A stretch of 64,000 bases of DNA, taken from assembly GCA_019428945.1 (NCBI GenBank), contig JAHYJM010000004.1:2294-66293 (forward strand), given 5' to 3'. Source of the stretch: Bacillota bacterium. Lineage in GTDB: Bacteria > Bacillota > Dethiobacteria > DTU022. Below the pieces are notes generated by a model. That model had not been told where the DNA came from. It made no database searches and saw nothing but the letters and a program-made list of their open reading frames with translations. Shown one piece after another: positions 8,721 through 62,571 of this stretch. A program made the position numbers and the translations under genes. Each line of letters starts with the position of its first letter. Positions within the stretch are counted from its first letter, which is position 1.

Positions 8721-8727
8721 TAAAGAA

Positions 8728-10644
<1,917 letters not shown>

Positions 10645-10719: not shown

Positions 10720-10965
10720 CTAGCGGTTGTTTTTCTGCCGTCTGGACAGCGTAATTGGAGATATTGGCGAAATAAATATATCTCTATCCGTTACTATAAA
10801 AGATTTTGGTAAATCGCTGCCAATTTTACTTTTAACCATATTAACTTTAACTGTCTCAAAAAATATACTGTTAATGTTTTCATCAACAGCAGAAAGGCTG
10901 TAATCAAAAATACCAATTAGTTCATGGGTAAAAACAATCTGTGAACCTCCAATATGAAGAAACAT
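10720..10965 (-). CDS. remB: RemB/YaaB (DUF370-like) protein
   Basis: MFLHIGG...KSFIVT...ISPISPITLSRR; canonical position between recF and gyrB. Confidence 0.85.
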   Translation of the reverse strand: MFLHIGGSQIVFTHELIGIFDYSLSAVDENINSIFFETVKVNMVKSKIGSDLPKSFIVTDRDIFISPISPITLSRRQKNNR

Positions 10966-11042
10966 TGCACCCCTCCGGCATTAACAATAATCTTATCATT
11001 CGGGCATATATGAAGAGTAATCATAATTTATCATTAAAAATA

Positions 11043-11339
11043 CTATTCGGCCAGATCGCCTATCTGAAAGAATATATCCCTGACTATTTTTGAACCTGCA
11101 TGCTGATTAAGTTTTCCGATAAGTTGAGGTTTCATCATGGTCAGATGATATGCCCAAACTGAATCTTTTACAGACACTCTTAGAACTCCGTTAGCAATAG
11201 ATTCTGCCTGTGTCACTTCAGACAGGGCCGATCCAACTATTTCATTCCAGCTTTGAACCAATTGATATTGCTGATAACCATTCCACAAATTGCAGCTCCG
11301 CAGGAAATTTTCAAGTACTGAACTGATCTGTTTCATCAA
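11043..11339 (-). CDS. DUF721/DciA family protein (putative helicase-operating protein)
   Basis: WNEIVGSALSEVT...NGVLRVSVKDSVWAYHLTMMKPQLIGKLN...VRDIFFQIG; overlaps the recF 3' end. Confidence 0.8.
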   Translation of the reverse strand: MMKQISSVLENFLRSCNLWNGYQQYQLVQSWNEIVGSALSEVTQAESIANGVLRVSVKDSVWAYHLTMMKPQLIGKLNQHAGSKIVRDIFFQIGDLAE

Positions 11340-12444: not shown

Positions 12445-12465
12445 TAATGTAAACCCCCAAAATTA

Positions 12466-13578
12466 CTAATTAACCTTTTTTATAGGCAGTACTAAATACA
12501 AGTATGAGGAATTATCTAAAAGCCTGAAAATAAGCGGACCTCCTTCACCATGAAAATCAATAATTATTTTTTCTTCATCCCTTATCTTTAAGATATCAAG
12601 AATGAAACGGGAGTTGACAAAAAGCTCAAGGCCTTCTCCCTCTTGTTCCACCGGTAAATATTCTTCCATACTGCCTTCCTGACTATTTACACGAACTTCA
12701 AAACGGTTATCTTTCACGGCTATATTAACCGCCTGGTTTTTACCTTCTGCCAGCAATGCAGCCCTGGCAATTGTTTCTTCCAACAATTTACGTTCGATGA
12801 TAACCCTCGTTTTAAATTCAAATGGAATAACACCACTTACATCAGGATATTTTTCCTCAAGCAACCTTGAAGCAAAAAAAGTATTGTCAAAATTAACAGT
12901 TAACAGGCTGTTTTGATATCCGACTGTGACCCCGGTATGTCCTTCACCTGCAATACGTAAAAATTCACGAAGAGCTTTTGCGGGAACCAAACATTTCGTC
13001 TCTTCAAATGACCATGATTGATCATAGATTTCATTAATCACAAGACGATATGTATCGGAGGCAGTAAGCGACAGGGTCTGCCCTTTGAAAGTAAATAAAA
13101 TTCCATTAAAAGCAGGTCTGGTTTCTTCAGTGGAAGCTGCAAAAACCACTTCTTTCAATATTTTTTTGAATCTAATTAAATCCAAATTAAAGCTTTCTGT
13201 AAGTTCTTCTTCCGGGGAAACAGACGTTGTAGGAAAATCTTCAGCCGAGGCTCCGTAGAGATGAAAACGTGCGGAACCTCCGGAAATATCAAGCCTGTAA
13301 TTATCCCAGTTTATGTCAATCAATACTGAAGGAGTGGGAAAATATCTGACAATGTCAACAATTTTTGGAGGCAGCAAAATTCTTCCGGAGTCGCTCCCCT
13401 GATGATCCATACTGACATTAATAAATATTTCATGATTTGTTGCTGAAAAGGTTAATCTATTGCTGTCGATATTTAAAAGAATGTTATTTATGACTGGAAC
13501 TGTTGTTCTGACAGGAAGAGCTTTTTCCACTGTTTCAAGACATGCTGACAGTTGACCGGTAACAGTTGATAATTGCAT
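12466..13578 (-). CDS. dnaN: DNA polymerase III beta clamp
   Basis: 370 aa; SDTYRLV, SRLLEEKYPD, YLVLPI C-terminus; position downstream of dnaA. Confidence 0.95.
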   Translation of the reverse strand: MQLSTVTGQLSACLETVEKALPVRTTVPVINNILLNIDSNRLTFSATNHEIFINVSMDHQGSDSGRILLPPKIVDIVRYFPTPSVLIDINWDNYRLDISGGSARFHLYGASAEDFPTTSVSPEEELTESFNLDLIRFKKILKEVVFAASTEETRPAFNGILFTFKGQTLSLTASDTYRLVINEIYDQSWSFEETKCLVPAKALREFLRIAGEGHTGVTVGYQNSLLTVNFDNTFFASRLLEEKYPDVSGVIPFEFKTRVIIERKLLEETIARAALLAEGKNQAVNIAVKDNRFEVRVNSQEGSMEEYLPVEQEGEGLELFVNSRFILDILKIRDEEKIIIDFHGEGGPLIFRLLDNSSYLYLVLPIKKVN

Positions 13579-13599
13579 TATTAACTCCCCTTTACAATG

Positions 13600-13830
13600 T
13601 TTTTAACAGGTATTTAATAATTACTTTATTGATCTATATAAATAGTAGTGGTAGTAAGTCCTGTGTATACTGTGCAAAAATAATTATTTTAGTAAAAAGC
13701 ACCATACAAGAAGAAATTAATTATAATTTTATCAATTTAAAGTGTTAATAAACTCTTAAAAACTTGTTTAATAAAAGTGTGATTTTTATAATTTAAAAAA
13801 AGAGATAATATATGCACAGGTTATTAACAT
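13600..13830. other. oriC: oriC unwinding region (DnaA boxes, DnaA-trios, AT-rich DUE)
   Basis: Tandem near-consensus boxes TGTGTATAC 13662-13670 and TGTGCAAAA 13671-13679, next to TAG TAG TGG TAG TAA trios 13643-13657 and an AT-rich tract; further boxes TGTTAATAA 13743-13751, ATATGCACA 13810-13818, TTATTAACA 13821-13829. Confidence 0.85.
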
Positions 13831-13835
13831 GATAA

Positions 13836-15242
13836 TTAGGAGTTATTAAGGATATTATTTTTAATGAGTTCTATCCTGTTTTTAAAATCTTGGTTCCTGG
13901 TTATTAAGCTGTCAATTTTCTTAAAAGCATGAAGCACAGTAGTATGATCTCGACCGCCAAATTCTTCACCAATTTTTGGTAAGGATAGGTCGGTAAGCAT
14001 ACGGCACAGATACATAGCAGTCTGCCTTGTTAGGGCAATTTCCTGTGTTCTTTTTTTTGAAATTACATCTTCTTGATTTAGACTAAAATTCTCTGCTGTT
14101 TTTTGAATAATTACTGAAACTGTTATATTTTTCTGGCGGGTAACAATAATATCCTGTAAAGCTGCTTCAGTAAGTTCCTGAGTGACAGGAGTTTCGGAGA
14201 GAGATGCATATGCAACAATTCGAATCAATGCTCCTTCGAGTTCACGGATATTAGTAATTACTTTTTCAGCAATATACTGGATAACCTGATCGGGTATATC
14301 TATTCCGTCTGAAAGTGCTTTCTTTTTTAGAATTGCAGTCCGGGTTTCAAGATCGGGAGGCTGAAGGTCAGTAATTAATCCCCATTCGAAACGCGAACGA
14401 AGACGATCTTCTAGTGTGGGAATTTCTTTAGGAGGGCGATCACTGGAAATAATTATCTGCCTGTTATTGTCGTGAAGAGCATTAAATGTGTGGAAAAATT
14501 CCTCCTGGGTCTGTTCCTTTCCAGCTAAAAATTGAATATCATCAATTAAAAGTATATCCATATTTCGATATTTATTTCTGAATTCAAGAGTTTTATTATC
14601 GCGAATAGCGTTAATAAATTCATTGGTAAATTTTTCGGAAGAGAAATAAAAAACTCTTGAAAAACCATGGTTTATAAGGGAATATTGACCAATTGCATGA
14701 AGTAAATGCGTTTTGCCAAGACCAACTCCGCCATATATAAAGAGAGGATTGTAGGCTCTGGCAGGACTTTCAGCTACAGCCAAAGATGCGGCGTGTGACA
14801 GACGATTACATGCTCCGACAACAAAGGTATCAAAAGTATAGCGGGGGTTAAAGCTGGATATAAGTTTATTTTTTTTAATGTTGTCATCAATTCGTTTCTG
14901 ATTATTCTTGTTTTCATTCTCTGAAAGAAAAAAATTATTATTTAGGGCATCTTCATCAAGCTGTTGTATCAAATCACCTGAATCCTGAAATTCAGATGCA
15001 ATGATAAAGTTTACGCGGTGATCAGATGCTGTAATTTCTTTGAGGGCTTTCATAATTTTATCTCTGTACCTGGTTTCAAACCACTCTTTGGTAAAATCAT
15101 TCGGCACTTCAATTACCAGACAATCATTTTCAAGGGATACAGGTTTAGTTAAATTAAACCAGGTTTCAAAGCTTGGTTTTTTTAAGTCTTTACTCAATTC
15201 TGATAATGTAAGTTGCCAAATTTCGTTCAAATGGCTGTTCAT
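13836..15242 (-). CDS. dnaA: Chromosomal replication initiator DnaA
   Basis: SFETWF, FNPRYTFDTFVVG, YGGVGLGKTHLL, DDIQFL, GGRDHTTVLHA; SD GGAGG before ATG 15242. Confidence 0.99.
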   Translation of the reverse strand: MNSHLNEIWQLTLSELSKDLKKPSFETWFNLTKPVSLENDCLVIEVPNDFTKEWFETRYRDKIMKALKEITASDHRVNFIIASEFQDSGDLIQQLDEDALNNNFFLSENENKNNQKRIDDNIKKNKLISSFNPRYTFDTFVVGACNRLSHAASLAVAESPARAYNPLFIYGGVGLGKTHLLHAIGQYSLINHGFSRVFYFSSEKFTNEFINAIRDNKTLEFRNKYRNMDILLIDDIQFLAGKEQTQEEFFHTFNALHDNNRQIIISSDRPPKEIPTLEDRLRSRFEWGLITDLQPPDLETRTAILKKKALSDGIDIPDQVIQYIAEKVITNIRELEGALIRIVAYASLSETPVTQELTEAALQDIIVTRQKNITVSVIIQKTAENFSLNQEDVISKKRTQEIALTRQTAMYLCRMLTDLSLPKIGEEFGGRDHTTVLHAFKKIDSLITRNQDFKNRIELIKNNILNNS

Positions 15243-15287
15243 AAATAATACCTCCATAAAGAATCATGAGAGTAAAGACAGGAATAG

Positions 15288-15398
15288 TTATTAACATTAA
15301 AAAGAGTTATTAACAAAAAGTGTGGATAACTCTTTGTTTGAGGAGCTAAAAGCGACTGTCTGTAAAAATATATTAACAGATTCAGTGGGTAACTGCAA
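15288..15398 (-). promoter_or_regulatory. dnaA sigmaA promoter and DnaA-box cluster (upstream half of oriC)
   Basis: Minus strand TTGCAG (15398-15393)-17-TAATAT (15375-15370) with extended TG; boxes TTATTAACA 15288-15296 and 15307-15315, perfect TGTGGATAA 15321-15329, ATATTAACA 15370-15378 over the -10. Confidence 0.7.
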
Positions 15399-15449
15399 AG
15401 ATAAGTTTGAGTAAGCAACAAAGAATTTCATTATGAATGAACTGTTTTC

Positions 15450-15479
15450 TTGACATGATTCCTTTTATTACTGTATAAT
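15450..15479 (+). promoter_or_regulatory. sigmaA promoter of the rpmH operon
   Basis: TTGACA-18-TATAAT. Confidence 0.85.
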
Positions 15480-15515
15480 TTTTTTAAACTATGTACTTTA
15501 AGTGAAGGGGTAAAA

Positions 15516-15650
15516 ATGAAAAGAACATATCAACCTAAAAAAAGAAAAAGAAAAAGAGTCCATGGATTCTTAAAAAGAATGAGTACACAGGCAGGCAGAC
15601 AGGTTATTAGAAGAAGAAGGCTGAAGCTGAGAAAACGTATCAGCGCTTAA
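15516..15650 (+). CDS. rpmH: 50S ribosomal protein L34 (not in the ORF track)
   Basis: Manual translation [44 protein letters not shown]. Confidence 0.97.
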
Positions 15651-15657
15651 CATTAAT

Positions 15658-15996
15658 ATGATGTTGAGCAGGCTTAAAAAAGGCTGGGAATTTAAAAAGG
15701 TTTACCGAAAGGGCAGGACGGTTGTTTCTAGAAATATCGTCCTTTATTACTGCCCTAACGGATTAAATATAAACCGTATTGGGTTCTCAATAAAAAAAAG
15801 TGTAGGGAAAAGTGTTATTCGCAATCGAATCCGGCGTATCTACAGAGAAGCATTCTTTCATTTGGAAGGACAGTTGCTGCAGGGTTTTGATTTTATAATT
15901 ATTGTTAGGAAACCATCAGTGGGTGTTTCTTTTCATGAAGCCGGCAAGGAGCTGTTCAATCTTTGCAAGAAGGCTCAACTGCTTTCAAAGGGATAG
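15658..15996 (+). CDS. rnpA: Ribonuclease P protein component
   Basis: [31 protein letters not shown]. Confidence 0.95.
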
Positions 15997-16226
15997 GAAA
16001 AACAACAGAATATTATGCCACCAGGATCTGTTTAATAATAATCAGATTCTACAGGATATTTATTTCTCCCCTCAAACCCCGGGTATGTCGTTTTTATCCA
16101 TCCTGCTCAGAGTATACTTATGAGGCTGTTCAGAAATATGGCATATGTAAAGGAATATATATGGGCATGAAGAGGATTTTAAAATGCCACCCCTTTAATC
16201 CGGGTGGCTTTAATCCTGTAGAATAA
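15963..16226 (+). CDS. yidD: Membrane protein insertion efficiency factor YidD (start uncertain)
   Basis: [10 protein letters not shown]...[16 protein letters not shown]; start either TTG 15963 or ATA 15993. Confidence 0.92.
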
Positions 16227-16248
16227 CCTGTTGGTAGGAGGAATATAA

Positions 16249-17073
16249 ATGATAGATGCAATAGCCCAATTTTTTGGGGTCCTTATCAGCTTCATTTACG
16301 ACTATGTTCCAAACTTGGGATTAGCGATCATAATTATGACAGTCCTGGTTAAAATTGTTACATTCCCGTTAAATAACAAGCAGATCCAGTCAGCAAAAAG
16401 AATGCAGCAGTTGCAGCCGGAAATGAAGAAAATTCAGCAAAAATATAAGGATGACAAGGAGAAGCAGAACCAGGCTGTATCAGAATTCATGAAAGAAAAT
16501 AACATGAATCCTTTGGCAGGATGCCTTCCGCTGCTGGTACAGTTTCCGATATTGATCGGGATCTTCAGGCTGCTAAGAGAAGCAAATGAATTCCTGGATA
16601 TGAGCGTGATTAATCCATACCTGTTTCCCTCAGCGCAATTTATCGATTTACTGGCTGTGCCAAATATAGGTTTTGATAATTTCCTGAGTCAAATAAGTAT
16701 ATATTACATATTCCCCTTAATTGCAGGCGCAACCACATATATTTATTCAAAGATGTCAATGTCGACCGACAGCAGTCAAAAAATGATGTTATACATGATG
16801 CCAATTATGATTACTGTATTCAGTTTTAGTTTTCCGGTTGGCTTGGTCATATATTGGATCATGAATAATGTATTTTCCATTGGTCAGCATAAATTTATTG
16901 TTAAAATGGATCAAGTTAAGGAAGACGGTAAGGCAGATGAAGTTTCAAAATCGAATGGCAGGGAAAATAGTAAACCCGAGAGCAAAAAGGCTTTAGAAAA
17001 GACTGAAAGCAATAAAAAACCTGAACCCAAGGGAGCTAAATCAAAAGCAAAAAAGGGGAAGGGTAAAAAATGA
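16249..17073 (+). CDS. yidC: Membrane protein insertase YidC/SpoIIIJ
   Basis: MQQLQPEMKKIQQKY, NPLAGCLPLLVQFPIL, GLVIYW; Lys-rich C-terminal tail. Confidence 0.95.
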   Translation: MIDAIAQFFGVLISFIYDYVPNLGLAIIIMTVLVKIVTFPLNNKQIQSAKRMQQLQPEMKKIQQKYKDDKEKQNQAVSEFMKENNMNPLAGCLPLLVQFPILIGIFRLLREANEFLDMSVINPYLFPSAQFIDLLAVPNIGFDNFLSQISIYYIFPLIAGATTYIYSKMSMSTDSSQKMMLYMMPIMITVFSFSFPVGLVIYWIMNNVFSIGQHKFIVKMDQVKEDGKADEVSKSNGRENSKPESKKALEKTESNKKPEPKGAKSKAKKGKGKK

Positions 17074-37680: not shown

Positions 37681-38970
37681 ATGGAAAAATTTATCATCAA
37701 AGGGAAAACAGCTCTGCAGGGCAGTGTCAGAATAAGCGGATCTAAAAACTCTGCTGTAGCATTACTACCTGCATCTGTATTGACTGATAGTACGGTACAT
37801 ATTGAAAACCTGCCAGATATTACCGATGTGCGGACCATGATTTCTATTCTTGAAGATCTTGGTGTGAAAATAAGAAGACGTGGTCGGAATGCAGTAGAAC
37901 TTACGCCAGGAAGCTTGTCTAAAATTGCCCCTTCTTATGATCTTGTAAAGAAAATGAGAGCTTCATATTATTTTATGGGCAGCTTGCTTGCACGCTTTGG
38001 CAAAGCAGAAGTTCCTATACCCGGTGGTTGTGATCTTGGTCCCAGACCGATAGATCAACACCTTAAGGGTTTCGCTGCGCTTGGTGCAAAAAGCAGTATT
38101 GAACATGGAATGATTAAGTTAATCTCAGAAAAACTTGTAGGTGCGCGAATTTACTTTGATGTTGTCAGTATCGGCGCAACTGTTAACCTAATGCTTGCTG
38201 CAGCTGCTGCAGAAGGTAGGACAGTTCTGGAAAATGTTGCCAAGGAACCTGAAATTGTGGATCTTGCAAACTTTCTCAATGCAATGGGGGCATCTATCAG
38301 AGGCGCCGGTACAGATGTAATTAGGATCGATGGTACCAATAAGTTTTCCGGGGCAAGACACACGGTAATACCGGACAGGATAGAAGCCGGAACGTTTATG
38401 CTTGCTGCAGCGGCAACAAGGGGTAGTGTGGTGGTGGATGATGTGATCCCAAAACACCTTGAAGCAATTACTGCAAAGCTGAGAGAAGTTGGCGCTATCG
38501 TTGAAGTAGAACCGGAAACTATAAAGGTGACAGGCGTGGCAAATCTGAAACCTTCAGATCTTAAAACCTTTCCCTATCCCGGCTTTCCGACTGATCTGCA
38601 GCCACCGGGAATGGTTTTACTGACCGCGGCTAAAGGTTTGAGTGTAGTAACCGAAAATGTTTTTGACGGCCGCTATAATCATGTTGATGATCTTAAAAGG
38701 ATGGGCGCTCACATAAAAGTTGAAGGCCGAACTGCTTTGATTGAAGGCGGGAACAGTTTATCTGGAGCTCCCGTTTCAGCTCCTGATCTCAGGTCAGGAG
38801 CAGCATTGATCATAGCAGCGATCATGGCTGAAGGGGTCAGTGAAATCTGTGCGATTGAACATGTTGATCGCGGATACGACAGATTTGAAGAAAAACTTAT
38901 AAAACTTGGGGCATCGATTAAAAGGGCAAAAGTTACTGAACTTGATTGTTCAACTGGTAATACAGAATAA
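37681..38970 (+). CDS. murAB: UDP-N-acetylglucosamine 1-carboxyvinyltransferase, MurAB/MurZ-type paralogue
   Basis: GSKNSA, MRASYY, GGCDLGPRPID, YPGFPTDLQ, DLRSGA. Confidence 0.92.
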   Translation: MEKFIIKGKTALQGSVRISGSKNSAVALLPASVLTDSTVHIENLPDITDVRTMISILEDLGVKIRRRGRNAVELTPGSLSKIAPSYDLVKKMRASYYFMGSLLARFGKAEVPIPGGCDLGPRPIDQHLKGFAALGAKSSIEHGMIKLISEKLVGARIYFDVVSIGATVNLMLAAAAAEGRTVLENVAKEPEIVDLANFLNAMGASIRGAGTDVIRIDGTNKFSGARHTVIPDRIEAGTFMLAAAATRGSVVVDDVIPKHLEAITAKLREVGAIVEVEPETIKVTGVANLKPSDLKTFPYPGFPTDLQPPGMVLLTAAKGLSVVTENVFDGRYNHVDDLKRMGAHIKVEGRTALIEGGNSLSGAPVSAPDLRSGAALIIAAIMAEGVSEICAIEHVDRGYDRFEEKLIKLGASIKRAKVTELDCSTGNTE

Positions 38971-42101: not shown

Positions 42102-43103
42102 ATGATCAATCCTTGGTTACAATTTGCAGTATGTGCAGTAATAATAGTAATTGCCGGCAGCCGGCTAACAAGAATGGCAGCTATTGTTGCACACAACACA
42201 GGAATCGGCACAGCATGGATTGGCGCTTTAATGCTGCCGCTGGCTACTTCGCTGCCTGAACTGGTAACCACGTTGCGTGCGGTAACAATTGATGCTCCTG
42301 ATCTGGCTCTGGGTAACATCTTTGGTAGCTGCCTTTACAACCTCACCCTGATTGCAGTTATAGATCTTCTTGAAGGCAGAGGTCCACTTACAGCACGGAT
42401 TAATCGTGGGCATATCATCATGGCTTCAATGAGTATTATAACCGTCTCTTTTGCAGTGGTAGCTATGCTCGGAGTGATAAATTTAACAATTAGCCGAGTG
42501 AGCTTTGAAACAGTAATTATTGCCCTTATTTATATTATGGGAAGCAGATTGCTTTACCGTTATGAAAAAAGACAGGTTTCGATTGATCTTGAAGAAGCTG
42601 GTTTTCGGTCATCACGAAGTGGTCAGTCTACCGGTATGGCTCTGTTCCAGTTTCTTATTGCCGCTGCATTTATTGTTGGCGCAGGAGTTTTTCTGACCGA
42701 TGCATCGGATAAGATCGCTGTATCAACGGGGCTTGGACATACCTTTGTCGGATCTATATTTCTGGCAATAAGCACTTCCCTGCCTGAGACGGTTACAACA
42801 ATTACTGCAGTGCGTATTGGGCTTCTTGATATGGCAGTTGCCAATGTATTTGGTGCAAATTTTATGAACCTGTTTATTGTTTTTATCGCAGATCTGTTTT
42901 ACCGCGGAGGTCCACTGCTTTATGCAGTTTCAGACAATAATCTTTTTTCGGCGATAATGGTGATCATGTTGAGTACATTTGTAATTTTCGGTATTACTTA
43001 CAGATCAGAAAGAAAGTTTGCCCGGATCGGTGTAGATGCTTTGCTGGTCCTGCTTGGCTACCTGGTGGCGGTATACATGTTATACATATTGGGTGGCAAT
43101 TAA
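42102..43103 (+). CDS. Sodium:calcium antiporter (CaCA family)
   Basis: Two alpha repeats ATSLPEL...GNIFGS and STSLPET...ANVFGAN. Confidence 0.88.
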   Translation: MINPWLQFAVCAVIIVIAGSRLTRMAAIVAHNTGIGTAWIGALMLPLATSLPELVTTLRAVTIDAPDLALGNIFGSCLYNLTLIAVIDLLEGRGPLTARINRGHIIMASMSIITVSFAVVAMLGVINLTISRVSFETVIIALIYIMGSRLLYRYEKRQVSIDLEEAGFRSSRSGQSTGMALFQFLIAAAFIVGAGVFLTDASDKIAVSTGLGHTFVGSIFLAISTSLPETVTTITAVRIGLLDMAVANVFGANFMNLFIVFIADLFYRGGPLLYAVSDNNLFSAIMVIMLSTFVIFGITYRSERKFARIGVDALLVLLGYLVAVYMLYILGGN

Positions 43104-47374: not shown

Positions 47375-48976
47375 TTGTTCTGGACCATTGTTTTTACCAC
47401 CCTTGGCGGGATGGGCCTTTTTTTATTCGGAATTCAAATTATGGCTTCCGGTATGCAAAAAGCAGCCGGTGACCGGTTCCGTAAAATTCTTGAAATGCTA
47501 ACTAATAATCCAATTCTTGGTGTTATCACAGGAATTGTTGTTACCATCCTGGTACAGAGCAGCAGCACTTCCACGGTAATGGTTGTTGGTTTCGCCAATG
47601 CAGGACTGATGAACCTTTCCCAGGCGATAAGCGTTATAATCGGAGCAAATATTGGGACGACTGTGACAGCGCAGATTGTCTCTTTTAAAATCGGCGTTAT
47701 TGCCCTGCCTACAATAGGGATTGGTTCACTCTTAAACTTTTTTGGCAAGCGTAGATTCCACCGGTATCTTGGGCAGACAATTTTGGGATTTGGGCTTCTC
47801 TTCCTTGGCATGACAACAATGTCGGAAGGGATGAGTCCGCTCCGTGAATTCGAAGCTTTCCATCGCCTGCTGGCTCAATTCAGTGTATATCCGGTGCTGG
47901 GTATACTCTGCGGAGCTTTATTTACAGCTCTGGTTCAAAGCAGCAGTGCCTCAACCGGTGTAATTATAGCCCTGACGATGCAGGATTTGATCCCTTTTGA
48001 ATCTGCAGTTCCGCTAATATTGGGTACAAACATAGGAACCTGCATAACGGCCATCCTGGCCAGTATAGGCGCCAATGTGGCGGCGCGACGGGCGGCAACT
48101 GCACACGTGCTATTTAATGTTATCGGAGTAACGCTAGCCCTGATCCTGCTTGGACCTTTCACGGAAATAATGATGGAAACAGCAAGTACTGTCCCCCGCC
48201 AGGTTGCAAATACACATACAATCTTCAATATTTTTAATACCATAATATTTTTGGTCTTTCTTAAATTCTTTTCCCGCCTTGTCTGCCGGATTATCCCTGG
48301 TGAAGATGAGAAAATTGAATTCGGGCCGAAATACTTAGATCACCGAATTTTAAAAACTCCACCTGCAGCAATAGGAGGGGTAAAAAAAGAAGTATTGAGG
48401 ATGGCAGGTATTGCCCGGGAAATGTTAGATGAATCGGTGCAGGTATTTTTAACAAATGATCTTAAGAAGGTTAAACATATTGAACAGATGGAAGAGCTGG
48501 TCGATGGCCTCGAGAAAGAGATCAATATTTATCTGGCAGAATTGTCGCAGCACTCCATGTCTCAAGAACAGTCTAAAATGGTAGCCAACCTGATGTCGGC
48601 GGCTAACGACCTTGAGCGTATCGGCGATCATGCGGAAAATATTATGCAGCTTGGCGAAGCTAAAACTGAAGACAGGCTTCCTTTTTCACAGGCAGCGCTT
48701 GAAGAAATAACAGAATTTTACGGCAAAGTTGAAGCCATGCTGGAAAAAGCGGTAAAAGCATTTGAGACGAATGATCATGAGCTTGCGAACCAGGTTGTTC
48801 TGGAAGATGATTATGTTGATGACCAGGAAAAATTACTGCGCAAAATGCACATAGATAGGATCAATACCAAGAAATGTTACCCTGCTGCCGGCGTGATTTA
48901 CCTTGATCTGCTGAGCAATCTAGAGCGTGTCGGGGATCATGCAAACAATATCGCCGATCTGGTTCTTACAGAGTAA
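47375..48976 (+). CDS. Na/Pi cotransporter with PhoU-like C-terminal domains
   Basis: Two VQSSS repeats, GANIGTT/GTNIGTC; DLERIGDHA and NLERVGDHA. Confidence 0.93.
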   Translation: MFWTIVFTTLGGMGLFLFGIQIMASGMQKAAGDRFRKILEMLTNNPILGVITGIVVTILVQSSSTSTVMVVGFANAGLMNLSQAISVIIGANIGTTVTAQIVSFKIGVIALPTIGIGSLLNFFGKRRFHRYLGQTILGFGLLFLGMTTMSEGMSPLREFEAFHRLLAQFSVYPVLGILCGALFTALVQSSSASTGVIIALTMQDLIPFESAVPLILGTNIGTCITAILASIGANVAARRAATAHVLFNVIGVTLALILLGPFTEIMMETASTVPRQVANTHTIFNIFNTIIFLVFLKFFSRLVCRIIPGEDEKIEFGPKYLDHRILKTPPAAIGGVKKEVLRMAGIAREMLDESVQVFLTNDLKKVKHIEQMEELVDGLEKEINIYLAELSQHSMSQEQSKMVANLMSAANDLERIGDHAENIMQLGEAKTEDRLPFSQAALEEITEFYGKVEAMLEKAVKAFETNDHELANQVVLEDDYVDDQEKLLRKMHIDRINTKKCYPAAGVIYLDLLSNLERVGDHANNIADLVLTE

Positions 48977-53523: not shown

Positions 53524-53789
53524 TATTTCGCGTGCCGTGCTTTTAGTTTGTATAAATATTTGCATATTTCAACGATTAGCCTGCACTCTGATTTTCGCTA
53601 ATATATAACTGAACATTAATAACCGCATCAGCTTAATAATGTTAATGACTACCTAAATACTACGCCGGCATATTCAAAAGGACCTTTTAAGCCATTATTT
53701 GATGAAGGTTATTTATTTGACTTAGAATATAGCTTGCTTAATTTTATTGTTGCAGCATAAATCAGTATCAGTTTAAAGGATGGTGGGGT

Positions 53790-54392
53790 ATGTCGATTCA
53801 GGTAAAAGAACTTATTGACAAGATTAAAAACGAGGGTGTCCTTGCGGCCGAGACTGAGGCTGAAAAAATTATTTCCGAAGCTGAGGAAAAGGCAGCCCAA
53901 CTAATTAAGGATGCTCAGGCCAAAGCGGAATTGCATAAGGCCCAGGTCGAACAGGAGTTGGAACAGCAAAAAGCTGCCGGTATTGCTGCTATTAAGCAGG
54001 CCGCCCGCGATGTTTTAATCGGTTTGGACAAGCAGCTTATAAAACGAATGGACGCGGTTATCATTGAATCAGTAGATACAGCACTGACAACTTCTTTAAC
54101 AGAGAAAATTATTGTAGAGATGGTCCATGCCTGGGCTGAAAAGGGCGAAGAGGGCATCAGGGTAGTTCTCTCTTCAAAAGATGCCGAAACGTTGAAAGAG
54201 TCTTTAAAGGGAAAATTGTCGCAGAGCCTCAAGGATGGAGTGGAAATAATCCCCTCTGCTAAGTTTGATAAAGGTTTTCGTATCGGTGGCAGTAGTGGGG
54301 TTTTATACGATTTTTCCAAGGAAAGTATTGCGGAGGTTCTGTCTCAGGCTCTCTCCCCCGACCTTGCAGCAGCTTTAAAAGAGTCAATCTAA
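53790..54392 (+). CDS. ntpE: V/A-type ATPase subunit E
   Basis: ELIDKIKNEGV...AEKIISEA coiled coil; GFRIG...YDFSKESIAE; first gene of the cluster. Confidence 0.85.
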   Translation: MSIQVKELIDKIKNEGVLAAETEAEKIISEAEEKAAQLIKDAQAKAELHKAQVEQELEQQKAAGIAAIKQAARDVLIGLDKQLIKRMDAVIIESVDTALTTSLTEKIIVEMVHAWAEKGEEGIRVVLSSKDAETLKESLKGKLSQSLKDGVEIIPSAKFDKGFRIGGSSGVLYDFSKESIAEVLSQALSPDLAAALKESI

Positions 54393-54411
54393 GGACTTGG
54401 AGGAAAGTGTC

Positions 54412-54939
54412 TTGAAAAACCATTATTACACGTTAGCGGCCCTTGGAACGATCAGGCTGGAAGAAAAAATACCCGTTACTGAAGAATATTTTTTGCAGTT
54501 TGCTGAAGATACAATTGATGCGAAAAGCTATCAGGTTTTGTTAAAAAGTCGCTGGGGCTTAACGGAGCCAACCGGCTTTTCTTTTGCTGACCGGATTCTC
54601 TCCTGGGAAAAGGAACTGCGTTTGGAATTGGCTAAAGCACGTGCTTTGAAGCTGCCATTTGACGCTTCTCCAGATCTAGAGGAATCAAAAGGTAGCTACA
54701 ACTTGCTTGAACAGGTGCGAGCTGTCATGGCTTTAGATTCACCTTTGGATGCGGAGCGATATTTGGACCAATTGCGATGGTGCTATTTAGAAGAGACGGG
54801 TGCTCACCACTATTTTGACCTTGAGGCTTTGGTCGTATATTATTTAAAACTTCAGCTTGCTTTGCGTCAGGAAAAGTTTAAAGTGGAACTTGGCAGAGAT
54901 TCTTTTGAAAAAGAATACGCTGCTTTAGCTGACAGTTAA
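54412..54939 (+). CDS. DUF2764 / V-type ATPase subunit C-like protein
   Basis: YYTLAALG, SWEKELRLELAKAR, AERYLDQLRW, HYFDLEALVVYYLKLQ; slot between E and A. Confidence 0.75.
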   Translation: MKNHYYTLAALGTIRLEEKIPVTEEYFLQFAEDTIDAKSYQVLLKSRWGLTEPTGFSFADRILSWEKELRLELAKARALKLPFDASPDLEESKGSYNLLEQVRAVMALDSPLDAERYLDQLRWCYLEETGAHHYFDLEALVVYYLKLQLALRQEKFKVELGRDSFEKEYAALADS

Positions 54940-54970
54940 TATACTGATTACCTTATAGAAATGGGTGAGG

Positions 54971-56740
54971 ATGATTAACAAAGTAATTGGAGTTAGTGGA
55001 AATATGGTATCTGTGGAATATGCCGGCGAAGCCACGATGAACGAAGTCTGCTACATTAATACCGGTGATAAGAAATTAAAATCAGAGGTCATCCGTATTA
55101 AGGGCAATGTGGCCGACCTCCAGGTTTTTGAAATGACTTCAGGTATAAGTGTGGGGGAAACTGTTGAATTCAGCGGTGAATTACTCAGTGTGCAGTTAGG
55201 CCCGGGTTTATTGGGGCAAATATATGATGGATTGCAGAACCCCTTACCTGAACTGGCACAGCAGTGTGGCTTCTTTTTAGAACGCGGTGTCTATATGGCA
55301 GCTCTCGATGATAAAAAAGAGTGGGAATTTAGCCCGACGGTGGAGGCCGGTGCCAGGTTGGAATCCGGCGAACAGATCGGCTTTGTCAAAGAGGGTCTTT
55401 TTAATCACTGGATCATGGTCCCCTTTCAGCTTGATGGTGTTCTAACAATCGAGAGCATTGCTGCGGCAGGAACATACACCATTAATGATGTGCTGGCGGA
55501 AGTTAAAGATGAAAAAGGCGACATTCACCAATTAACAATGGTATTTAACTGGCCCGTAAAAAGAGCGATTAAAAACTATGCAGAGCGCTTGAAGCCGGAA
55601 GAAACTCTGATCACAAAACTAAGAATTATTGACACTTTCATCCCCGTGGCCAAGGGCGGTACTTACTGCATTCCCGGTCCTTTTGGCGCCGGTAAAACGG
55701 TTCTGCAGCAAATAACTTCCAGGTATGCTGATGCGGATATTATTATTATCGCTGCCTGTGGTGAGCGTGCCGGCGAGGTAGTGGAGACCCTGAAAGAGTT
55801 TCCCGAGCTGATCGACCCGAAAACCGGCCGTTCTTTAATGGAAAGAACCATCATAATCTGCAACACCTCTTCCATGCCGGTTGCTGCTCGTGAAGCTTCA
55901 GTTTATACGGCGGTAACTATGGCCGAATATTACCGGCAGATGGGCCTGAATGTTCTGATGCTGGCTGATTCAACCTCGAGGTGGGCCCAGGCTATGCGTG
56001 AAATGTCCGGTCGTCTGGAAGAAATTCCAGGGGAGGAAGCATTTCCTGCCTACCTGGAATCCCTGATTGCCGCCTTTTATGAGCGGGCCGGGATAGTTCG
56101 CCTCAAAAGTGGCGATATCGGCTCTGTGACTATCGGCGGCACTGTTTCTCCGGCCGGTGGTAACTTTGAAGAGCCGGTAACCCAGGCCACTTTGAAGGTA
56201 GTAGGCGCATTTCACGGTTTGTCACAGCAGCGGGCTGATGCCCGTAAATATCCTGCTATCCACCCCCTGGAATCCTGGTCAAAATATAAGGGGATCATCG
56301 ATCAAAAGAAAACAGAATATGGTCGGGCCATTCTCTTTAAAGGTGACGAGGTTGGCCAAATGATGAAAGTAGTTGGTGAAGAGGGTACGTCCCTTGATGA
56401 TTATATCATTTACCTAAAATCGGAGTTGCTGGATTACGTGTATATTCAACAGAACTCCTTTGATCCTGTAGATGCTGCTGTTGAGCCTGAGCGCCAACTA
56501 CATATCTACGATATTCTAATCGGTATTCTGACGGCTAAGTTAGATTTTGCCGGCAAAGAGGAAGCCCGCTCCTGGTTTAACCGGGTGCGGCAGAACTTCC
56601 TGGACTATAATGGTAAAAAATGGAAGAGTGACGAGTTTAATAATTTGGAGAAAACCATCTCCGAACTGTTGGACGATAAGAAAATTGGGGTCGAAGCAGA
56701 TGCCGAAAGTCTTTGGGCAGGCGAGTCAAGGAGGGGCTAG
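54971..56740 (+). CDS. ntpA: V/A-type ATPase subunit A
   Basis: [47 protein letters not shown]. Confidence 0.96.
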
Positions 56741-56742
56741 TA

Positions 56743-58041
56743 TTGCAAAAAGTATACAGTAAAATCGAATCGATCTCCGGTAACGTTATTACAGTAAAGG
56801 CAACGGGTGTGCGCTACAAGGAGCTTGCCGTTGTGGGAAGCAGGTACGGCTCATCAATGGCGGAAGTAATCCGTCTTAAAGGCGATGAAGTTGCCCTGCA
56901 GGTTTTTAATGGTGCACGGGGAGTATCCACCGGGGATGAAGTCCGGTTCATGGGTGAGCCGATGAAAGTTTCTTTTTCCCCGAACCTATTAGGGCGTATT
57001 TTTGATGGATCAGGACGGCCGCGGGACGGAGGACCTGAACTTGCCGATACAATGGTTGAAATTGGTGGCCCTTCCGTTAACCCCGCCAAGCGGATTATTC
57101 CCCGCAACATGGTCCGGACAGGGATTCCCATGATTGATGTTTTTAATTCGCTGGTAGAGTCGCAGAAACTGCCTATTTTTTCAGTTTCCGGAGAGCCTTA
57201 TAATGAACTTTTAGCGCGGATTGCCCTACAGGCTGAGGTTGATATTATTATCCTCGGTGGGATGGGTCTAAAATACGATGATTATCTTTTCTTCAAGGAT
57301 ACTCTGGAAAAGGGTGGCGTGATGTCAAGGACAGTCTTTTTTGTCCATACCGCGTCCGACCCCGTCGTTGAATCCCTGCTGGTTCCCGATATTGCCCTGG
57401 CGGTGGCGGAAAACTTTGCCATCCAGGACAAACGGGTCCTGGTTCTGCTGACCGATATGACCAACTTCGCCGATGCCATGAAGGAAATCGCCATTACGAT
57501 GGAACAGGTTCCCTCCAACCGTGGCTATCCCGGAGACCTTTACACCCAGTTAGCCTCACGGTATGAAAAGGCGGTTGATTTTGAAGGGTCAGGCTCAATT
57601 ACTATCCTTGGCGTAACCACCATGCCCGGGGATGACGTTACCCACCCTGTGCCCGATAACACGGGATACATCACTGAAGGACAGTTCTATCTTCGTAATG
57701 GCCGGATCGAGCCGTTCGGATCTCTGTCCAGGTTAAAGCAGCTGGTAAATGGTGATACCCGTGAGGATCACCGTGCCATCATGGACGGCATGATTAAACT
57801 GTATGCTGCCTATAAGGAGTCCCTGGAAAAGAAATCAATGGGTTTTAAAATGTCAGACTGGGATGAGAAGCTTTTGACTTATGGTCAGTTGTTTGAAAAG
57901 GAAATGATGGATCTTTCCGTCAACATTCCCCTGGAGGCCGCCCTGGATAAAGGATGGGAAATTTTAGGCGGCTGCTTTGCGCCGGAGGAAACAGGATTAA
58001 AGTCGGAGCTGATCGAAAAATACTGTCGTACTAAGGTGTAG
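56743..58041 (+). CDS. ntpB: V/A-type ATPase subunit B
   Basis: [49 protein letters not shown]; TTG after GGAGG. Confidence 0.96.
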
Positions 58042-58044
58042 ATC

Positions 58045-58641
58045 ATGGCAAAAATCAAGTATACGAAAAATGAATTAAAAAAGCAAAAGGACCAGCTTAA
58101 AAGGTTCAGGCGCTATTTACCCACGCTGATTCTGAAGAAGCAGCTGCTGCAGATGGAGATAAGACAGGTCGAGATGCAAATAAACGAAAAGAACCAGCAG
58201 CGGGAAAGAATAAATGCCGAACTGATGAGCTGGGTTCATGTTTTTGGCGAAAATTTGAATATTGCCGAGCTGGTTAAGGTAAAAGAGACGGATCTGGAAA
58301 CCACTAACATAGCCGGTGTTGATATTCCAGTGTTTAATAAGGTCATTTATGAGAATATGCCCTATGACTTAATGTTCTATCCTTTATGGGTGGATGCAGG
58401 TGTTCAAAAGTTGAAAGAGCTTTTTTCTGCAGATATGGAACTTACTATTCTTAAAAAACAGGCTGAACTACTGGGTGAAGAATTAAGAATCACTTCTCAG
58501 CGGGTCAACTTGTTCGAAAAGGTAAAGATTCCTGACACCACGGAAAATATCAGGCGCATTAATATTTTCCTCGGCGATCAACAGACGGCGGCGGTTGTGC
58601 GGGGCAAGTTATCGAAAAATAAACTGGTGAGGGAGGCTTAA
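58045..58641 (+). CDS. ntpD: V/A-type ATPase subunit D
   Basis: TKNELKKQK...YLPTLILKK; TSQRVNLFEKVKIP. Confidence 0.93.
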   Translation: MAKIKYTKNELKKQKDQLKRFRRYLPTLILKKQLLQMEIRQVEMQINEKNQQRERINAELMSWVHVFGENLNIAELVKVKETDLETTNIAGVDIPVFNKVIYENMPYDLMFYPLWVDAGVQKLKELFSADMELTILKKQAELLGEELRITSQRVNLFEKVKIPDTTENIRRINIFLGDQQTAAVVRGKLSKNKLVREA

Positions 58642-58644
58642 GCG

Positions 58645-60528
58645 ATGATCGCAGAGATGAAAAATGTATCGATGGTTGTCCAGACCAAAGATAAAGAGTT
58701 AACTCTGGATGCACTGGCCGAACTTGGCCTCGTCCACCTTGAAGACTTTCAGTATTCTTCACCGGAAGTTGATGATGCTCTTGCCAGGAAAAACAGGGCA
58801 GAAGCTGCCTATAATTTTTTGATCTCACTCAAAAACAAGAATGACCTGACTTCCCCTTCTGTAGAAGTTTCAGAGGCCATAGAGGAAGTACTGAAGATAA
58901 AGGATGATCTTCAGGCTGCAATGGAACAGGAAGCTGCTTTAGAAAAACAGATTGCCGGTTTGGAAAAATGGGGGGATTTTAATCCCGCAGACTTCAACTT
59001 TCTTGCGAACAAGGGTTACTACCTGAAAATATATACCTTTCCTGGTGGCAAAAGCGACGATATCAACGATCTCGAGGGTTACGTAGTAATTTTAGAGGAA
59101 AACAAAAAAGAGTTGATATTTGCTCACCTTACCCGTGAACCTGTAAAACTGGACGATCATGAAGAGTTTAAGCTCCCCCAGCAAAGTCTCAGCGCTATGC
59201 GGGCAGAAAAAAATGAATTAGAAGCGAAGATTGCAGAGCTTACAGGCAAAGTACAGCAATATCATGGTCTTGGGCCTGCTCTACATGCTCACCTGGAAGA
59301 ACTGGACTCTAACCTGCAATATTGGATTGCCAAAGCAAATACCGTAGATGAAGGAAATCTCACCGCTATAGTCGGATATCTTCCTGCTGACGAAGCAGAG
59401 GCCGTCCAGAATTGGGCCCGACAGAATTCTGTCGCTTTAGCCATAACGGAGCCGGAAACATTAGAATCCGTCCCAACGCTAATCCGTAATCCCAGGTGGT
59501 TGCAGATTGTTGAACCTGTATTCAAATTTATGGGTACAGTCCCCGGCTATAAAGAACTGGATATAAGCCTGGTATTTCTTTGTTTTTTCACTATATTTTT
59601 TGCCATGATTATCGGGGATGCCGCCTACGGAAGCATTTTTTTCCTGGCAGGACTCGGTCTGGTAATTTACTATGGCAAATCTAAAAAAGAGAAACCTCCA
59701 CTGGCTGTGGTGCTTTTTACCATTCTTGGTTTGGCCACGGTTATATGGGGGAGCATGACCGGTTCCTGGTTTGGCAGTCCTGAACTGATCAAAGGTACTA
59801 TATTGGAAAAACTGGTAATTCGCCAGCTAACGGAGGGTTTCAGTTTCCATACGCCCGCCGGTGAATTTTATAAGGTTTTGAGCGGCCAGGATGTTATCAT
59901 GCTGTTGTGTTTCACCATCGCGATAGTTCACCTTACTATTGCGCAGGTTTGGAATTTTTTACGTGCCCTGGCTCACCGCTCTCTGCAGGCCCTGGGTCAG
60001 GTAGGATGGATGCTAATTAACTTTGGTCTTTTCTACCTGGTGCTCGATATGGTGGCGAGATTCAACCTCGACCAGGCGCTTGGTGCGGGAGGTCTCGTTA
60101 CAGACATGAGTTTAAATATTATTATTATTGGGTTAGCGTTGATCGTTCTTTTTGGCTCACAAAGACCAAGGGGTAACTTTTTTAAAGGACTGCTTGGCGG
60201 TCTTGGAGATCTACCGAGCACAGTTCTGGGATCTATATCGGCCTTCGGTGACATCATATCTTATGTGCGGCTTTTTGCCATGGGTCTGGCGGGAGCCGAA
60301 ATAGCGAGAGCATTCAATAACATGGCCGGAGACCTTTTATCCGGCAATACGTTCATATTTGGGGTGCTGATCCTGTTAATCGGGCATGCCTTTAACTTAG
60401 TTCTCTGCAGCCTGGGAGTGCTGGTGCACGGAATTCGTTTGAAAATGCTGGAGTTCTCGGGTCGGCTGGGTATACAGTGGTCTGGCCAGGAATATAATCC
60501 ATTCAGATTTCGTAGAGATTTTATTTAA
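58645..60528 (+). CDS. ntpI: V/A-type ATPase subunit I (a)
   Basis: WGDF, VPTL, PGYKELD, GDAAYG, SYVRLFAMGLA (essential Arg), HGIRLKMLEF. Confidence 0.93.
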   Translation: MIAEMKNVSMVVQTKDKELTLDALAELGLVHLEDFQYSSPEVDDALARKNRAEAAYNFLISLKNKNDLTSPSVEVSEAIEEVLKIKDDLQAAMEQEAALEKQIAGLEKWGDFNPADFNFLANKGYYLKIYTFPGGKSDDINDLEGYVVILEENKKELIFAHLTREPVKLDDHEEFKLPQQSLSAMRAEKNELEAKIAELTGKVQQYHGLGPALHAHLEELDSNLQYWIAKANTVDEGNLTAIVGYLPADEAEAVQNWARQNSVALAITEPETLESVPTLIRNPRWLQIVEPVFKFMGTVPGYKELDISLVFLCFFTIFFAMIIGDAAYGSIFFLAGLGLVIYYGKSKKEKPPLAVVLFTILGLATVIWGSMTGSWFGSPELIKGTILEKLVIRQLTEGFSFHTPAGEFYKVLSGQDVIMLLCFTIAIVHLTIAQVWNFLRALAHRSLQALGQVGWMLINFGLFYLVLDMVARFNLDQALGAGGLVTDMSLNIIIIGLALIVLFGSQRPRGNFFKGLLGGLGDLPSTVLGSISAFGDIISYVRLFAMGLAGAEIARAFNNMAGDLLSGNTFIFGVLILLIGHAFNLVLCSLGVLVHGIRLKMLEFSGRLGIQWSGQEYNPFRFRRDFI

Positions 60529-60633
60529 CCGGTAACCATCTCTACAATATCTCGACGGTTAGGACTAGTATCTTTTATTGTATCGGGATAATATACCGAA
60601 ATAAACTGCATTATTGAAAAGGAGCCTGATAAA

Positions 60634-61080
60634 ATGGTTGAGTATGGATTAATGGGTATTGCTGCAGCGCTTGCTATCTCTGCTGTTGGATCTTCACTCG
60701 GTATTGGTGCGGCCGGGCAGGCTGTTATTGGAGCGTGGAAAAAAGCATTCATGCAGAATAAGCCTGCTTCGTTTATGTTGTTGGCTTTTACTGGCTTTCC
60801 GCTCTCCCAGACTTTTTATGGTTTAATTCTAATGAATACCATCGTAGCATCGGCACATCTCTTAGAGAGTGGTGTAATTCTGGGGATCGGTATTTTTGGT
60901 GGCCTTGCAATCGGCACATCAGCCTATTTCCAGGGCGTTGCCGGTGCCGGTGCAGTCGATGCTTTTGCAGAGACAGGCAAAGGGTTTACCAACTATGTTC
61001 TGGTGCTTGGCGTTATTGAATCCGTTGCTCTGCTGGCTATGGTGTTTCTGATGACGATGATCAACACCATAGCAGGGTAA
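60634..61080 (+). CDS. ntpK: V/A-type ATPase subunit K (c), four-TM proteolipid
   Basis: GSSLGIGAAG, PLSQTFYG, FQGVAGAGA, GVIESVAL. Confidence 0.93.
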   Translation: MVEYGLMGIAAALAISAVGSSLGIGAAGQAVIGAWKKAFMQNKPASFMLLAFTGFPLSQTFYGLILMNTIVASAHLLESGVILGIGIFGGLAIGTSAYFQGVAGAGAVDAFAETGKGFTNYVLVLGVIESVALLAMVFLMTMINTIAG

Positions 61081-61272
61081 TTTCTGCAGAAGTGCTCTGC
61101 TATCGGTCGGATTAATCATTTGAGGCTGTCTGCAAAAGTGTTTTGGTCAGCCCCTATAGTTATCAATTTTGTCACTAAATTAATGCTGTTTAAAACAAGC
61201 GGACGGGTAGCGCTTACGCTATTATGCCTCTACCCAGGGTATTCATTTTAAGGTGTGTGGAAGGAATATTTT

Positions 61273-62571
61273 ATGACTCAGGAATTGATTGTGCAGGGGG
61301 GTATACCCCTGCATGGCTCTGTCAGAATAAAAGGTTCAAAAAATGCAGGGTTACCCATAATCGCTGCCGCTTTGCTTATAGATGAACCAGTGGTTATAGA
61401 AGAAGTGCCAGATCTTCTCGATGTTCGTACAATGCTGTCTGTTATAGAATCTCTCGGGGCTGTAGTTGACTACGATTCGAATGAAGAAAGAATTACTATA
61501 AATCCGAAAAATCTTCAGTCGGCTGAGCCACCCGTAGATCACATGCAGAAAATGCGTGCATCATTTCTGGTTTTAGGTCCCCTGCTGGCCCGTTACGGAT
61601 ATGCCCGACTTTCCCTTCCCGGCGGTTGTGCGATTGGCACGCGGCCCGTAGATCTTCACCTCAAAGGCTTTGAAGCAATGGGTGTTGAATTTTCCTACAC
61701 CAGCGGTTTGGTTGAAGGTAAAACCGGTTTCTTAAAGGGTGCAGATGTTTATCTTGATTATCCGAGCGTAGGCGCAACAGAAAATCTGATCATGGCGGCA
61801 GTGCTGGCAAAGGGATCCACTACAATTGAGAACGCCGCTTCAGAACCTGAAATTGTAGACTTAGCCGGCTTTTTAAACAGCGCCGGAGCCAAAATCAGCG
61901 GCGCTGGAACCAAAACAATTCGCATAAATGGTGTTAAGCAGCTTGGTGGAACCAAATATGCAGTGATACCGGATCGCATTGAGGCGGGAACATTTCTGCT
62001 AAGTGCAGCAGTTACCGGTGGTGAAATTATCGTTAACAATGTTCTTGCCGCTCACCTCAAACCGCTGCTGGCTAAAATGAGAGAGACGGGAGTAGAAATA
62101 GAAGAGACTGATCTTTCAGCGATCAGGGTTAGAGGGAGCCTTGACAAAAAGTGTGTTGACTTAAAAACACAGCCTTACCCGGGTTTTCCAACCGACCTTC
62201 AGCCCCAGTTTATGAGTTTGCTTGCAGCCTCCCGGGGAACAGGACTGGTGACTGAAACTGTATTTGAAAACCGCTTCAGACACATTGGCGGTTTGCTGCG
62301 CATGGGAGCAGACATACAGGTGGAGGGAAGCAGGGCAGTTGTTCAGGGAGTCAAAAAGCTTAGCGGCGCCCCCGTTGAAGCTTCCGATCTGAGAGGTGCT
62401 GCGGCGCTTGTTCTGGCAGCGCTGTCTGCCGGGGGAACTTCACGCATAACCGGACTTGAACATCTTTGGCGCGGTTACAGCGGGTTTGAAGATAGGCTCA
62501 GAAGTCTCGGCGCCAATTTAAAAGTGGAAACTAATATTAATTTAACGTGGGAAAGAGCAGCAGGAGAATAA
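61273..62571 (+). CDS. murA: UDP-N-acetylglucosamine 1-carboxyvinyltransferase
   Basis: GSKNAGLP, MRASFLV, GGCAIGTRPVD, YPGFPTDLQ, DLRGAA. Confidence 0.95.
   Translation: MTQELIVQGGIPLHGSVRIKGSKNAGLPIIAAALLIDEPVVIEEVPDLLDVRTMLSVIESLGAVVDYDSNEERITINPKNLQSAEPPVDHMQKMRASFLVLGPLLARYGYARLSLPGGCAIGTRPVDLHLKGFEAMGVEFSYTSGLVEGKTGFLKGADVYLDYPSVGATENLIMAAVLAKGSTTIENAASEPEIVDLAGFLNSAGAKISGAGTKTIRINGVKQLGGTKYAVIPDRIEAGTFLLSAAVTGGEIIVNNVLAAHLKPLLAKMRETGVEIEETDLSAIRVRGSLDKKCVDLKTQPYPGFPTDLQPQFMSLLAASRGTGLVTETVFENRFRHIGGLLRMGADIQVEGSRAVVQGVKKLSGAPVEASDLRGAAALVLAALSAGGTSRITGLEHLWRGYSGFEDRLRSLGANLKVETNINLTWERAAGE

Follow-up and report, generated by a model that had tools for sequence, protein, structure and literature searches.

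A predicted seven-gene Na+ V/A-type rotary ATPase in the synthase slot of a Dethiobacter-related Bacillota bacterium

A 64,000-nucleotide stretch of the genome of a Bacillota bacterium (class Dethiobacteria, DTU022; contig JAHYJM010000004.1, positions 2,294 to 66,293), referred to here as the window, carries an operon for a rotary ATPase of the vacuolar/archaeal type (V/A-type). The operon probably encodes a Na+-coupled enzyme of seven proteins, derived from spirochaetes and seated in the chromosomal slot that the canonical ATP synthase occupies in sister genomes. Seven closely spaced genes on the plus strand follow one another in the order E-DUF2764-A-B-D-I-K and are flanked by comEB (dCMP deaminase) and murA (Table 1). 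The original prediction, made from the sequence alone, had placed the cluster at 54412-61080. The genes it described are present; its start, however, lies one gene late and omits subunit E at 53790. Judged from its sequence, the operon is complete and intact.

Subunit composition and the Na+ motif

Subunit A contains the Pfam domains ATP-synt_ab_N, Xtn, ab and VA_C and an intact P-loop (GPFGAGKT, at residue 238 of the 591-residue open reading frame that starts at 54965). The product of the D gene matches the Pfam family ATP-synt_D (E = 1.7e-41). In subunit I, both arginines of the ion path, R542 (SYVRL) and R598 (HGIRL), are retained, and an alignment to the Enterococcus hirae structure 8WCI shows that the motifs GDxxSYxRL and VHGxRL are conserved. 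Subunits B, D and K all score higher than the curated cut-offs set for the NCBIfam equivalogs specific to the class (PRK02118, PRK02195 and PRK06649, respectively). The AlphaFold2 (AF2) model of subunit E, which has a predicted local distance difference test score (pLDDT) of 86.8, consists of a 97-residue N-terminal helix followed by an α/β C-terminal domain. A Foldseek search with this model returned 37 matches at E ≤ 1e-3 with template modelling scores (TM-scores) of up to 0.70. Those listed are V-ATPase entries and include yeast and mammalian V-ATPases, Thermus (3V6I_A and 6QUM_J) and subunit E of Pyrococcus horikoshii (4DT0). By its modelled fold, the protein is a canonical V/A-ATPase subunit E. 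In solved V/A enzymes, the long N-terminal helix of E is paired with G. The operon holds no G gene, so the partner of this helix would have to be a second copy of E or something else.

The enzyme's ion specificity is predicted from the proteolipid, K. This subunit has four hydrophobic segments and contains the stretches F55-P56-L57-S58-Q59-T60-F61-Y62-G63, Q100-G101 and E129-S130. Neither Asp nor Glu is found in helix 2 (residues 44-72), which leaves E129 as the one carboxylate for four helices, exactly as had been predicted for this 148-residue, four-helix protein. The accompanying claim, that its residues correspond to the Na+ ligands of E. hirae NtpK, is borne out at the level of the family. 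A search of the PDB with the single K sequence did not reach the NtpK structure (2BL2) at E ≤ 1, and a family profile was needed. When a profile was built from 56 K sequences of related loci, 2BL2 was the best PDB match (E = 5e-4), with S/T58 aligned to T64, Q59 to Q65, Y62 to Y68, Q100 to Q110 and E129 to E139. The columns concerned are nearly invariant: Y62, Q100 and E129 are present in all 56 sequences and Q59 in 54 of them, while position 58 is occupied by Thr in 39 and by Ser in 17. The observation was correct, and the predicted Na+ coupling of the enzyme is well grounded.

No genes for subunits C, F or G accompany these seven. In Pfam searches, no member of the ATP-synt_F, vATP-synt_AC39 or G families was found in the cluster, and tblastn queries with a sister genome's canonical G, C and F proteins gave no match within the 64-kb window, in agreement with the predicted absence of F and G from the cluster. 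The intergenic gaps measure 3-30 bp, apart from one of 105 bp between I and K, and are thus too short to hide an F or G gene. The second gene is separated from E by 4-20 bp and from A by about 30 bp.

This reduced layout is not new; it is that of the seven-gene bacterial V-type ATPase of spirochaetes, chlamydiae, Bacteroidota and Kuenenia. The minimal rotor put forward in the original prediction therefore stands as a cluster lacking C, F and G, but as a known feature of a class and not as a novelty. In the passage of Van Niftrik et al. (PMC2936114) that cites Lolkema et al. 2003, the V-ATPase clusters of Borrelia, chlamydiae and Kuenenia are described as lacking C, F and G and as encoding a four-helix proteolipid without the second carboxylate near helix 2. 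The same operon was reported in Bacteroides fragilis by Fiebig et al. (bioRxiv 10.1101/2023.05.11.540287), where the DUF2764 gene is named and all Na+ residues of NtpK are conserved; the operon is a strong fitness factor in deoxycholate, and its enzyme is described as uncharacterised.

The order and content of the window operon, with DUF2764 second and C, F and G absent, are those of the operons of Borrelia, Treponema, Chlamydia, Kuenenia (V-ATPase-4), Bacteroides and Porphyromonas. The Borrelia, Chlamydia and Bacteroides class also shares with it a four-helix K that has a carboxylate in helix 4 only and conserved Na+ residues. What sets the window apart from this class is its host, a Dethiobacter-related metagenome-assembled genome (MAG) of the Bacillota, its short form of DUF2764, and its location in a conserved upp-comEB/murA slot, where it alternates with the canonical V/A operon of sister genomes. 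The Na+ V-ATPase of E. hirae (NtpFIKECGABD; 2BL2 and 8WCI) is similar in having a four-helix K with one Na+ site and the aligned T/S, Q, Y, Q and E residues, and its NtpI is the best solved homologue of the window subunit I, with both arginines kept. In contrast to the seven subunits of the window operon, the E. hirae enzyme has nine, including C, an F-like and a G-like subunit, where the window has DUF2764 instead.

Table 1 Features of the seven-gene ATPase operon in the window and of the canonical operons in sister genomes (aa, amino acids; TM, transmembrane).
Feature	Coordinates	Strand	Basis
Candidate promoter TTGATG-18-TAGAAT	53699-53728	+	Consensus scan; 266-bp comEB-E gap
Subunit E (200 aa), peripheral-stalk protein	53790-54392	+	NCBIfam PRK01558, E = 1.5e-46
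DUF2764 protein, 175 aa (180 aa if TTG at 54397 starts)	54412-54939	+	Pfam PF10962
Catalytic subunit A (589 aa)	54971-56740	+	NF003220, 779 bits vs cut-off 470
Non-catalytic subunit B (432 aa)	56743-58041	+	NF002555 (PRK02118) equivalog, 760 bits vs cut-off 431
Central-shaft subunit D (198 aa)	58045-58641	+	NF002565 (PRK02195), 242 bits vs cut-off 189
Stator subunit I (a-type, 627 aa)	58645-60528	+	Best PDB match E. hirae NtpI 8WCI_P, E = 3.2e-19
Proteolipid K (148 aa, four TM helices)	60634-61080	+	NF005174 (PRK06649), 186 bits vs cut-off 127
Canonical operon, L082	L082:11201-19949
Canonical operon, L084	L084:11177-19787
Canonical operon, L085	L085:11178-19820
Canonical operon, L086	L086:11211-19852

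The DUF2764 protein

The second gene product matches the Pfam family DUF2764 (PF10962, E = 7.9e-10), with the match limited to positions 194-261 of the 271-position profile, in its C-terminal part. All 65 homologues of this protein from related loci match the same family, and no other ATPase family was matched. The description of this protein of about 176 residues as a C-like subunit, given in the original prediction, does not hold. In Pfam, none of the 65 homologues matches PF01992 (subunit C/d) or the F family. When the protein was compared by hhalign with a profile of 20 canonical subunit C sequences, taken from sister genomes and relatives, the probability was 0.4%. An AF2 model based on the 65-sequence alignment (pLDDT of 88.8 and predicted template modelling score, pTM, of 0.82) shows a compact all-helical bundle of eight helices. 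A Foldseek search of the PDB with this model gave a best E value of 2.3, with no V-ATPase subunit among the 50 matches listed, and the family profile returned chance matches only from the PDB at E ≤ 10. A relationship to subunit C was rejected, as there is no detectable likeness in sequence, profile or fold. The compact all-helical model likewise rules out an F-like (α/β) or a G-like (single long helix) protein.

The protein measures 175-209 residues in every related locus that holds a complete reading frame; its short length is not a truncation. A profile search of 1.8 billion representative sequences identified 3,126 members of the family at E ≤ 1e-3, and the best 150 of these 3,126 matches are all 162-251 residues long. 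The window protein is the short form, of about 180 residues, like that of the sampled spirochaete loci. Taken as a whole, the protein is a conserved, class-specific component and the positional successor of C and F, but not a demonstrable homologue of either. From its position in the operon, its strict co-occurrence with the other subunits and the elimination of other candidates, its most likely function is inferred to be that of an adaptor between rotor and ring, in place of C and F.

Chromosomal slot, relatives and origin

Upstream of the operon, the window contains a Na/Pi cotransporter gene, sua5, ywlE, rpiB, glyA, upp and comEB, and downstream it contains murA and a PHP-domain gene. Four sister loci (L082, L084, L085 and L086), in which Upp is 68-84% identical to that of the window, have the same flanks and carry a nine-gene operon, G-I-K-E-C-F-A-B-D, between comEB and murA/PHP. 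This canonical operon begins with a 108-residue G-like gene, and its K protein, as seen in L082, has the NtpK motif (LPGTQGIYG, YQG and VETY). The canonical Na+ V/A synthase of this type, found in Dethiobacter alkaliphilus and the sister MAGs, shares with the window enzyme the chromosomal slot, the Na+ motif of K and the type of habitat. It differs in comprising nine genes, including those for C (PF01992) and F (PF01990), in a different gene order, and its A and B subunits are 42% and 38% identical, respectively, to the window proteins.

In a more distant relative, no ATPase is present in the slot and the series spoIIT-murA-spoIID-spoIIID-mbl is retained, which is the neighbourhood of the Bacillus atp operon. 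A direct replacement of an F1Fo ATPase at the slot is not supported, as the sisters hold a canonical V/A operon and the distant relative holds none. The seven-gene loci L006 and L007 were examined for remnants of F1Fo genes between comEB and E; in L006, the additional stretch at this place (L006:5043-7882) holds no ATPase genes but encodes two membrane transporters (363 and 418 residues) inserted between comEB and E. The downstream flank also shows some variation: in L004, L082 and L086, no murA copy follows the ATPase and the next gene is that for the PHP-domain protein. The window itself has two genes of the EPSP_synthase family (murA-type), at 37681-38970 and 61255-62571, which are probably the MurAA/MurAB pair usual in Bacillota.

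To place the two operon types relative to each other, a tree was built from five flanking proteins, the inner nodes of which are weak. In this tree, the window and the seven-gene locus L004 fall in a fully supported clade with the canonical loci L082, L085 and L086, and the seven-gene loci L006, L007 and L008 lie outside that clade together with the canonical locus L084. The two operon types are thus interspersed, which requires at least two exchanges between the canonical and the seven-gene operon at this slot, in either direction. This alternation at one locus is the single finding not already covered by the literature.

The gene set was compared across 80 related loci from several phyla. 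Those that are long enough keep the order E-DUF2764-A-B-D-I-K, and the shorter ones show parts of it in the same order. The nearest A subunits are 93-96% identical to that of the window and come from MAGs that carry the label Syntrophomonadaceae or Bacillota; two of these MAGs have 'CSSed' isolate names and are from soda-lake sediment. Such soda-lake "Syntrophomonadaceae" are relatives of Dethiobacter. The next nearest A subunits, at ~70% identity, belong nearly all to spirochaetes. The best match at the DNA level is a run labelled 'volcano metagenome', with weaker matches in soda-lake and sediment metagenomes. In a tree of the A and B subunits rooted with canonical V/A sequences, all Bacillota operons form one clade (Shimodaira-Hasegawa-like approximate likelihood ratio test, SH-aLRT, of 100) that is nested within Spirochaetaceae. 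This nesting indicates that the operon would have entered the Bacillota in one horizontal transfer from spirochaetes. Elsewhere in the same tree, the V-ATPase of L031 (Candidatus Proendomicrobium guianensium, Elusimicrobiota) lies inside a clade of Treponema-labelled MAGs, several of which have isolate names resembling those of termite-gut studies. The placement of L031 suggests that the seven-gene operon crossed between phyla once more, or else that the MAG was wrongly binned.

Contigs from the operon of a relative are present in four metatranscriptome assemblies from hypersaline lakes. One contig of ~6 kb spans E to I at ~89% nucleotide identity (657 differences in 6,037 bases) with a depth of up to 56, and a second piece extends from the end of I to K. 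These contigs are consistent with a single transcript in situ; they are assembled contigs, for which DNA carry-over is possible. The assemblies X25-X28 (window 53763-61146) all break in I at about 59800-59908, where short alternative contigs of 84 nt are found, and the break looks like strain variation, not the end of a transcript. Promoter and terminator scans of the region, which gave the candidate upstream of E, performed no better than on shuffled sequence.

Role of the enzyme and its genomic surroundings

In the proposed mechanism, the A3B3 head would hydrolyse or make ATP, with D as its shaft. A ring of four-helix K subunits, each presenting one Na+ site (S58, Q59, Q100 and E129, with Y62 in support), would turn against I, with its conserved R542 and R598. 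The peripheral stalk would presumably be formed by E alone, with no G partner, and the DUF2764 protein would couple D to the wide ring, taking over the job of C (and F). As the slot is shared with a canonical Na+ V/A synthase, it is plausible that this predicted machine serves as the main reversible Na+ ATPase/synthase of the cell. The alternation of both types at one slot suggests that the function of the nine-gene Na+ ATP synthase is fulfilled by the seven-gene enzyme as well. Whether the genome would have no other rotary ATPase is close to an even call, which the shared slot tips towards yes. The combination of all these features, namely a sole rotary ATPase that acts as a Na+-driven synthase interchangeable with the nine-subunit one, with DUF2764 as the rotor replacement for C and F and with stalks of E only, can be put forward only tentatively and is doubtful as a whole. 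If it were true, the rotor would include, in DUF2764, a subunit whose fold has no solved relative, in an anaerobic lineage related to syntrophic acetate oxidisers.

ATP synthesis by a V-type ring is not in itself an obstacle to this role. Eubacterium A1AO enzymes differ from the window enzyme in having a full stalk complement, and their V-type c group also includes the Pyrococcus and Thermococcus enzymes. The A1AO synthase of Eubacterium callanderi/limosum, with its V-type c, has one Na+ site per four helices, like the window enzyme. It synthesises ATP at low driving force, and this experimental demonstration that an enzyme bearing a V-type c subunit can make ATP (Litty and Müller, PMC9171764) answers the energetic concern raised in the original prediction.

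Several points weigh against a Na+ synthase of seven proteins. A Na+ motif predicts ion specificity and is not proof of it. Subunits E (158 bits against a cut-off of 241, PRK01558) and I (467 bits against 799, PRK05771.2-2) have these class models as their best matches yet score below the cut-offs. The absence of C, F and G holds for the operon and the 64-kb window, which is a limited extent of the genome. No resemblance of the DUF2764 protein to C is detectable, and the protein might be an assembly factor. PDB sequence searches with the DUF2764 protein and with E found no solved homologue from such a complex, and within the literature searched no cryo-electron microscopy or biochemical study of the seven-gene class was found. 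Finally, the homologous enzyme of B. fragilis coexists with an F-type ATPase and is dispensable under standard conditions, in standard medium (bioRxiv 10.1101/2023.05.11.540287).

This last precedent is in line with an accessory role, in which the window enzyme would, like that of E. hirae, use ATP to pump Na+ out of the cell and serve Na+ and pH homeostasis in a saline-alkaline habitat, with ATP being made by a separate F-type or canonical V/A synthase encoded elsewhere in the genome. Among solved structures, K and I are indeed closest to E. hirae NtpK and NtpI, and the enzymes of the group vary, with a Na+ F1Fo in Candidatus (Ca.) Contubernalis and Ca. Syntrophonatronum and a full V-type enzyme in Dethiobacter. 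Against such a pump, the operon lies in the exact slot of the sisters' canonical Na+ V/A ATP synthase, and several bacteria with the same operon type (the pathogens Borrelia, Treponema, Chlamydia and Porphyromonas gingivalis; Mulkidjanian et al., PMC2359735) have a V-type enzyme as their sole ATPase of the membrane. The metatranscriptome contigs of the relative's operon, with assembler depths of 8-114, point the same way, although contig depth is a poor measure of expression. An accessory pump is accordingly a possible explanation, but not a likely one. The seven-gene set may also be minimal in appearance only, with equivalents of C, F and G encoded elsewhere and DUF2764 acting as an assembly chaperone or regulator. 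DUF2764 does differ from any known rotary-ATPase subunit, and the gene absence is established for 64 kb of the genome. This explanation nevertheless appears unlikely, given that the same seven genes are found without change in related loci from several phyla, that homologues of C, F and G are reported as lacking from the Borrelia, chlamydial and Kuenenia clusters in the literature cited above, and that DUF2764 sits between E and A in a translationally packed arrangement.

The choice of ion could differ as well, as the specificity of a rotor ring depends on the whole site and on conditions, and methanogen ATP synthases may, according to the literature, use Na+ and H+ at once. An enzyme that is H+-coupled, or promiscuous for H+ and Na+, despite its Na+-type motif is, however, improbable here: all five site residues of E. 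hirae are matched and are fully or nearly conserved in the sampled family, soda lakes, the source of the relatives, disfavour H+ coupling, and the Na+ motif recurs in the displaced or sister canonical operon. The spirochaete-derived Na+ enzyme in the canonical synthase slot thus remains the favoured explanation. The reduced V-ATPase class is widespread, and the DUF2764 family counts thousands of representatives at 50% identity. The window adds no new kind of machine. What it provides is a natural comparison, in which closely related anaerobes carry either a nine-gene or a seven-gene Na+ enzyme in one slot. The presence of either enzyme in the same slot argues for functional equivalence, and such matched pairs would be useful for asking what DUF2764 and the G-less stalk do.

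The wider neighbourhood of the operon includes further genes with a putative link to Na+. These encode a CaCA Na+/Ca2+ exchanger (42102-43103), a Na/Pi cotransporter fused to PhoU (47375-48976) and a transporter of the TAXI/TRAP type (NMT1_3 and a fused DctM, 4155-7280). Na+-linked transporters near the operon would fit a Na+-based membrane economy. The window also covers the neighbourhood of the replication origin at 756-16250, with gyrA, gyrB, recF, dnaN and dnaA on the minus strand. The guanine-cytosine (GC) skew changes sign at about 12-14 kb, and mnmE and parB are next on the plus strand. About 40 kb separate the ATPase operon from the origin, and the operon lies on the strand where nearly all genes past the skew switch are found.

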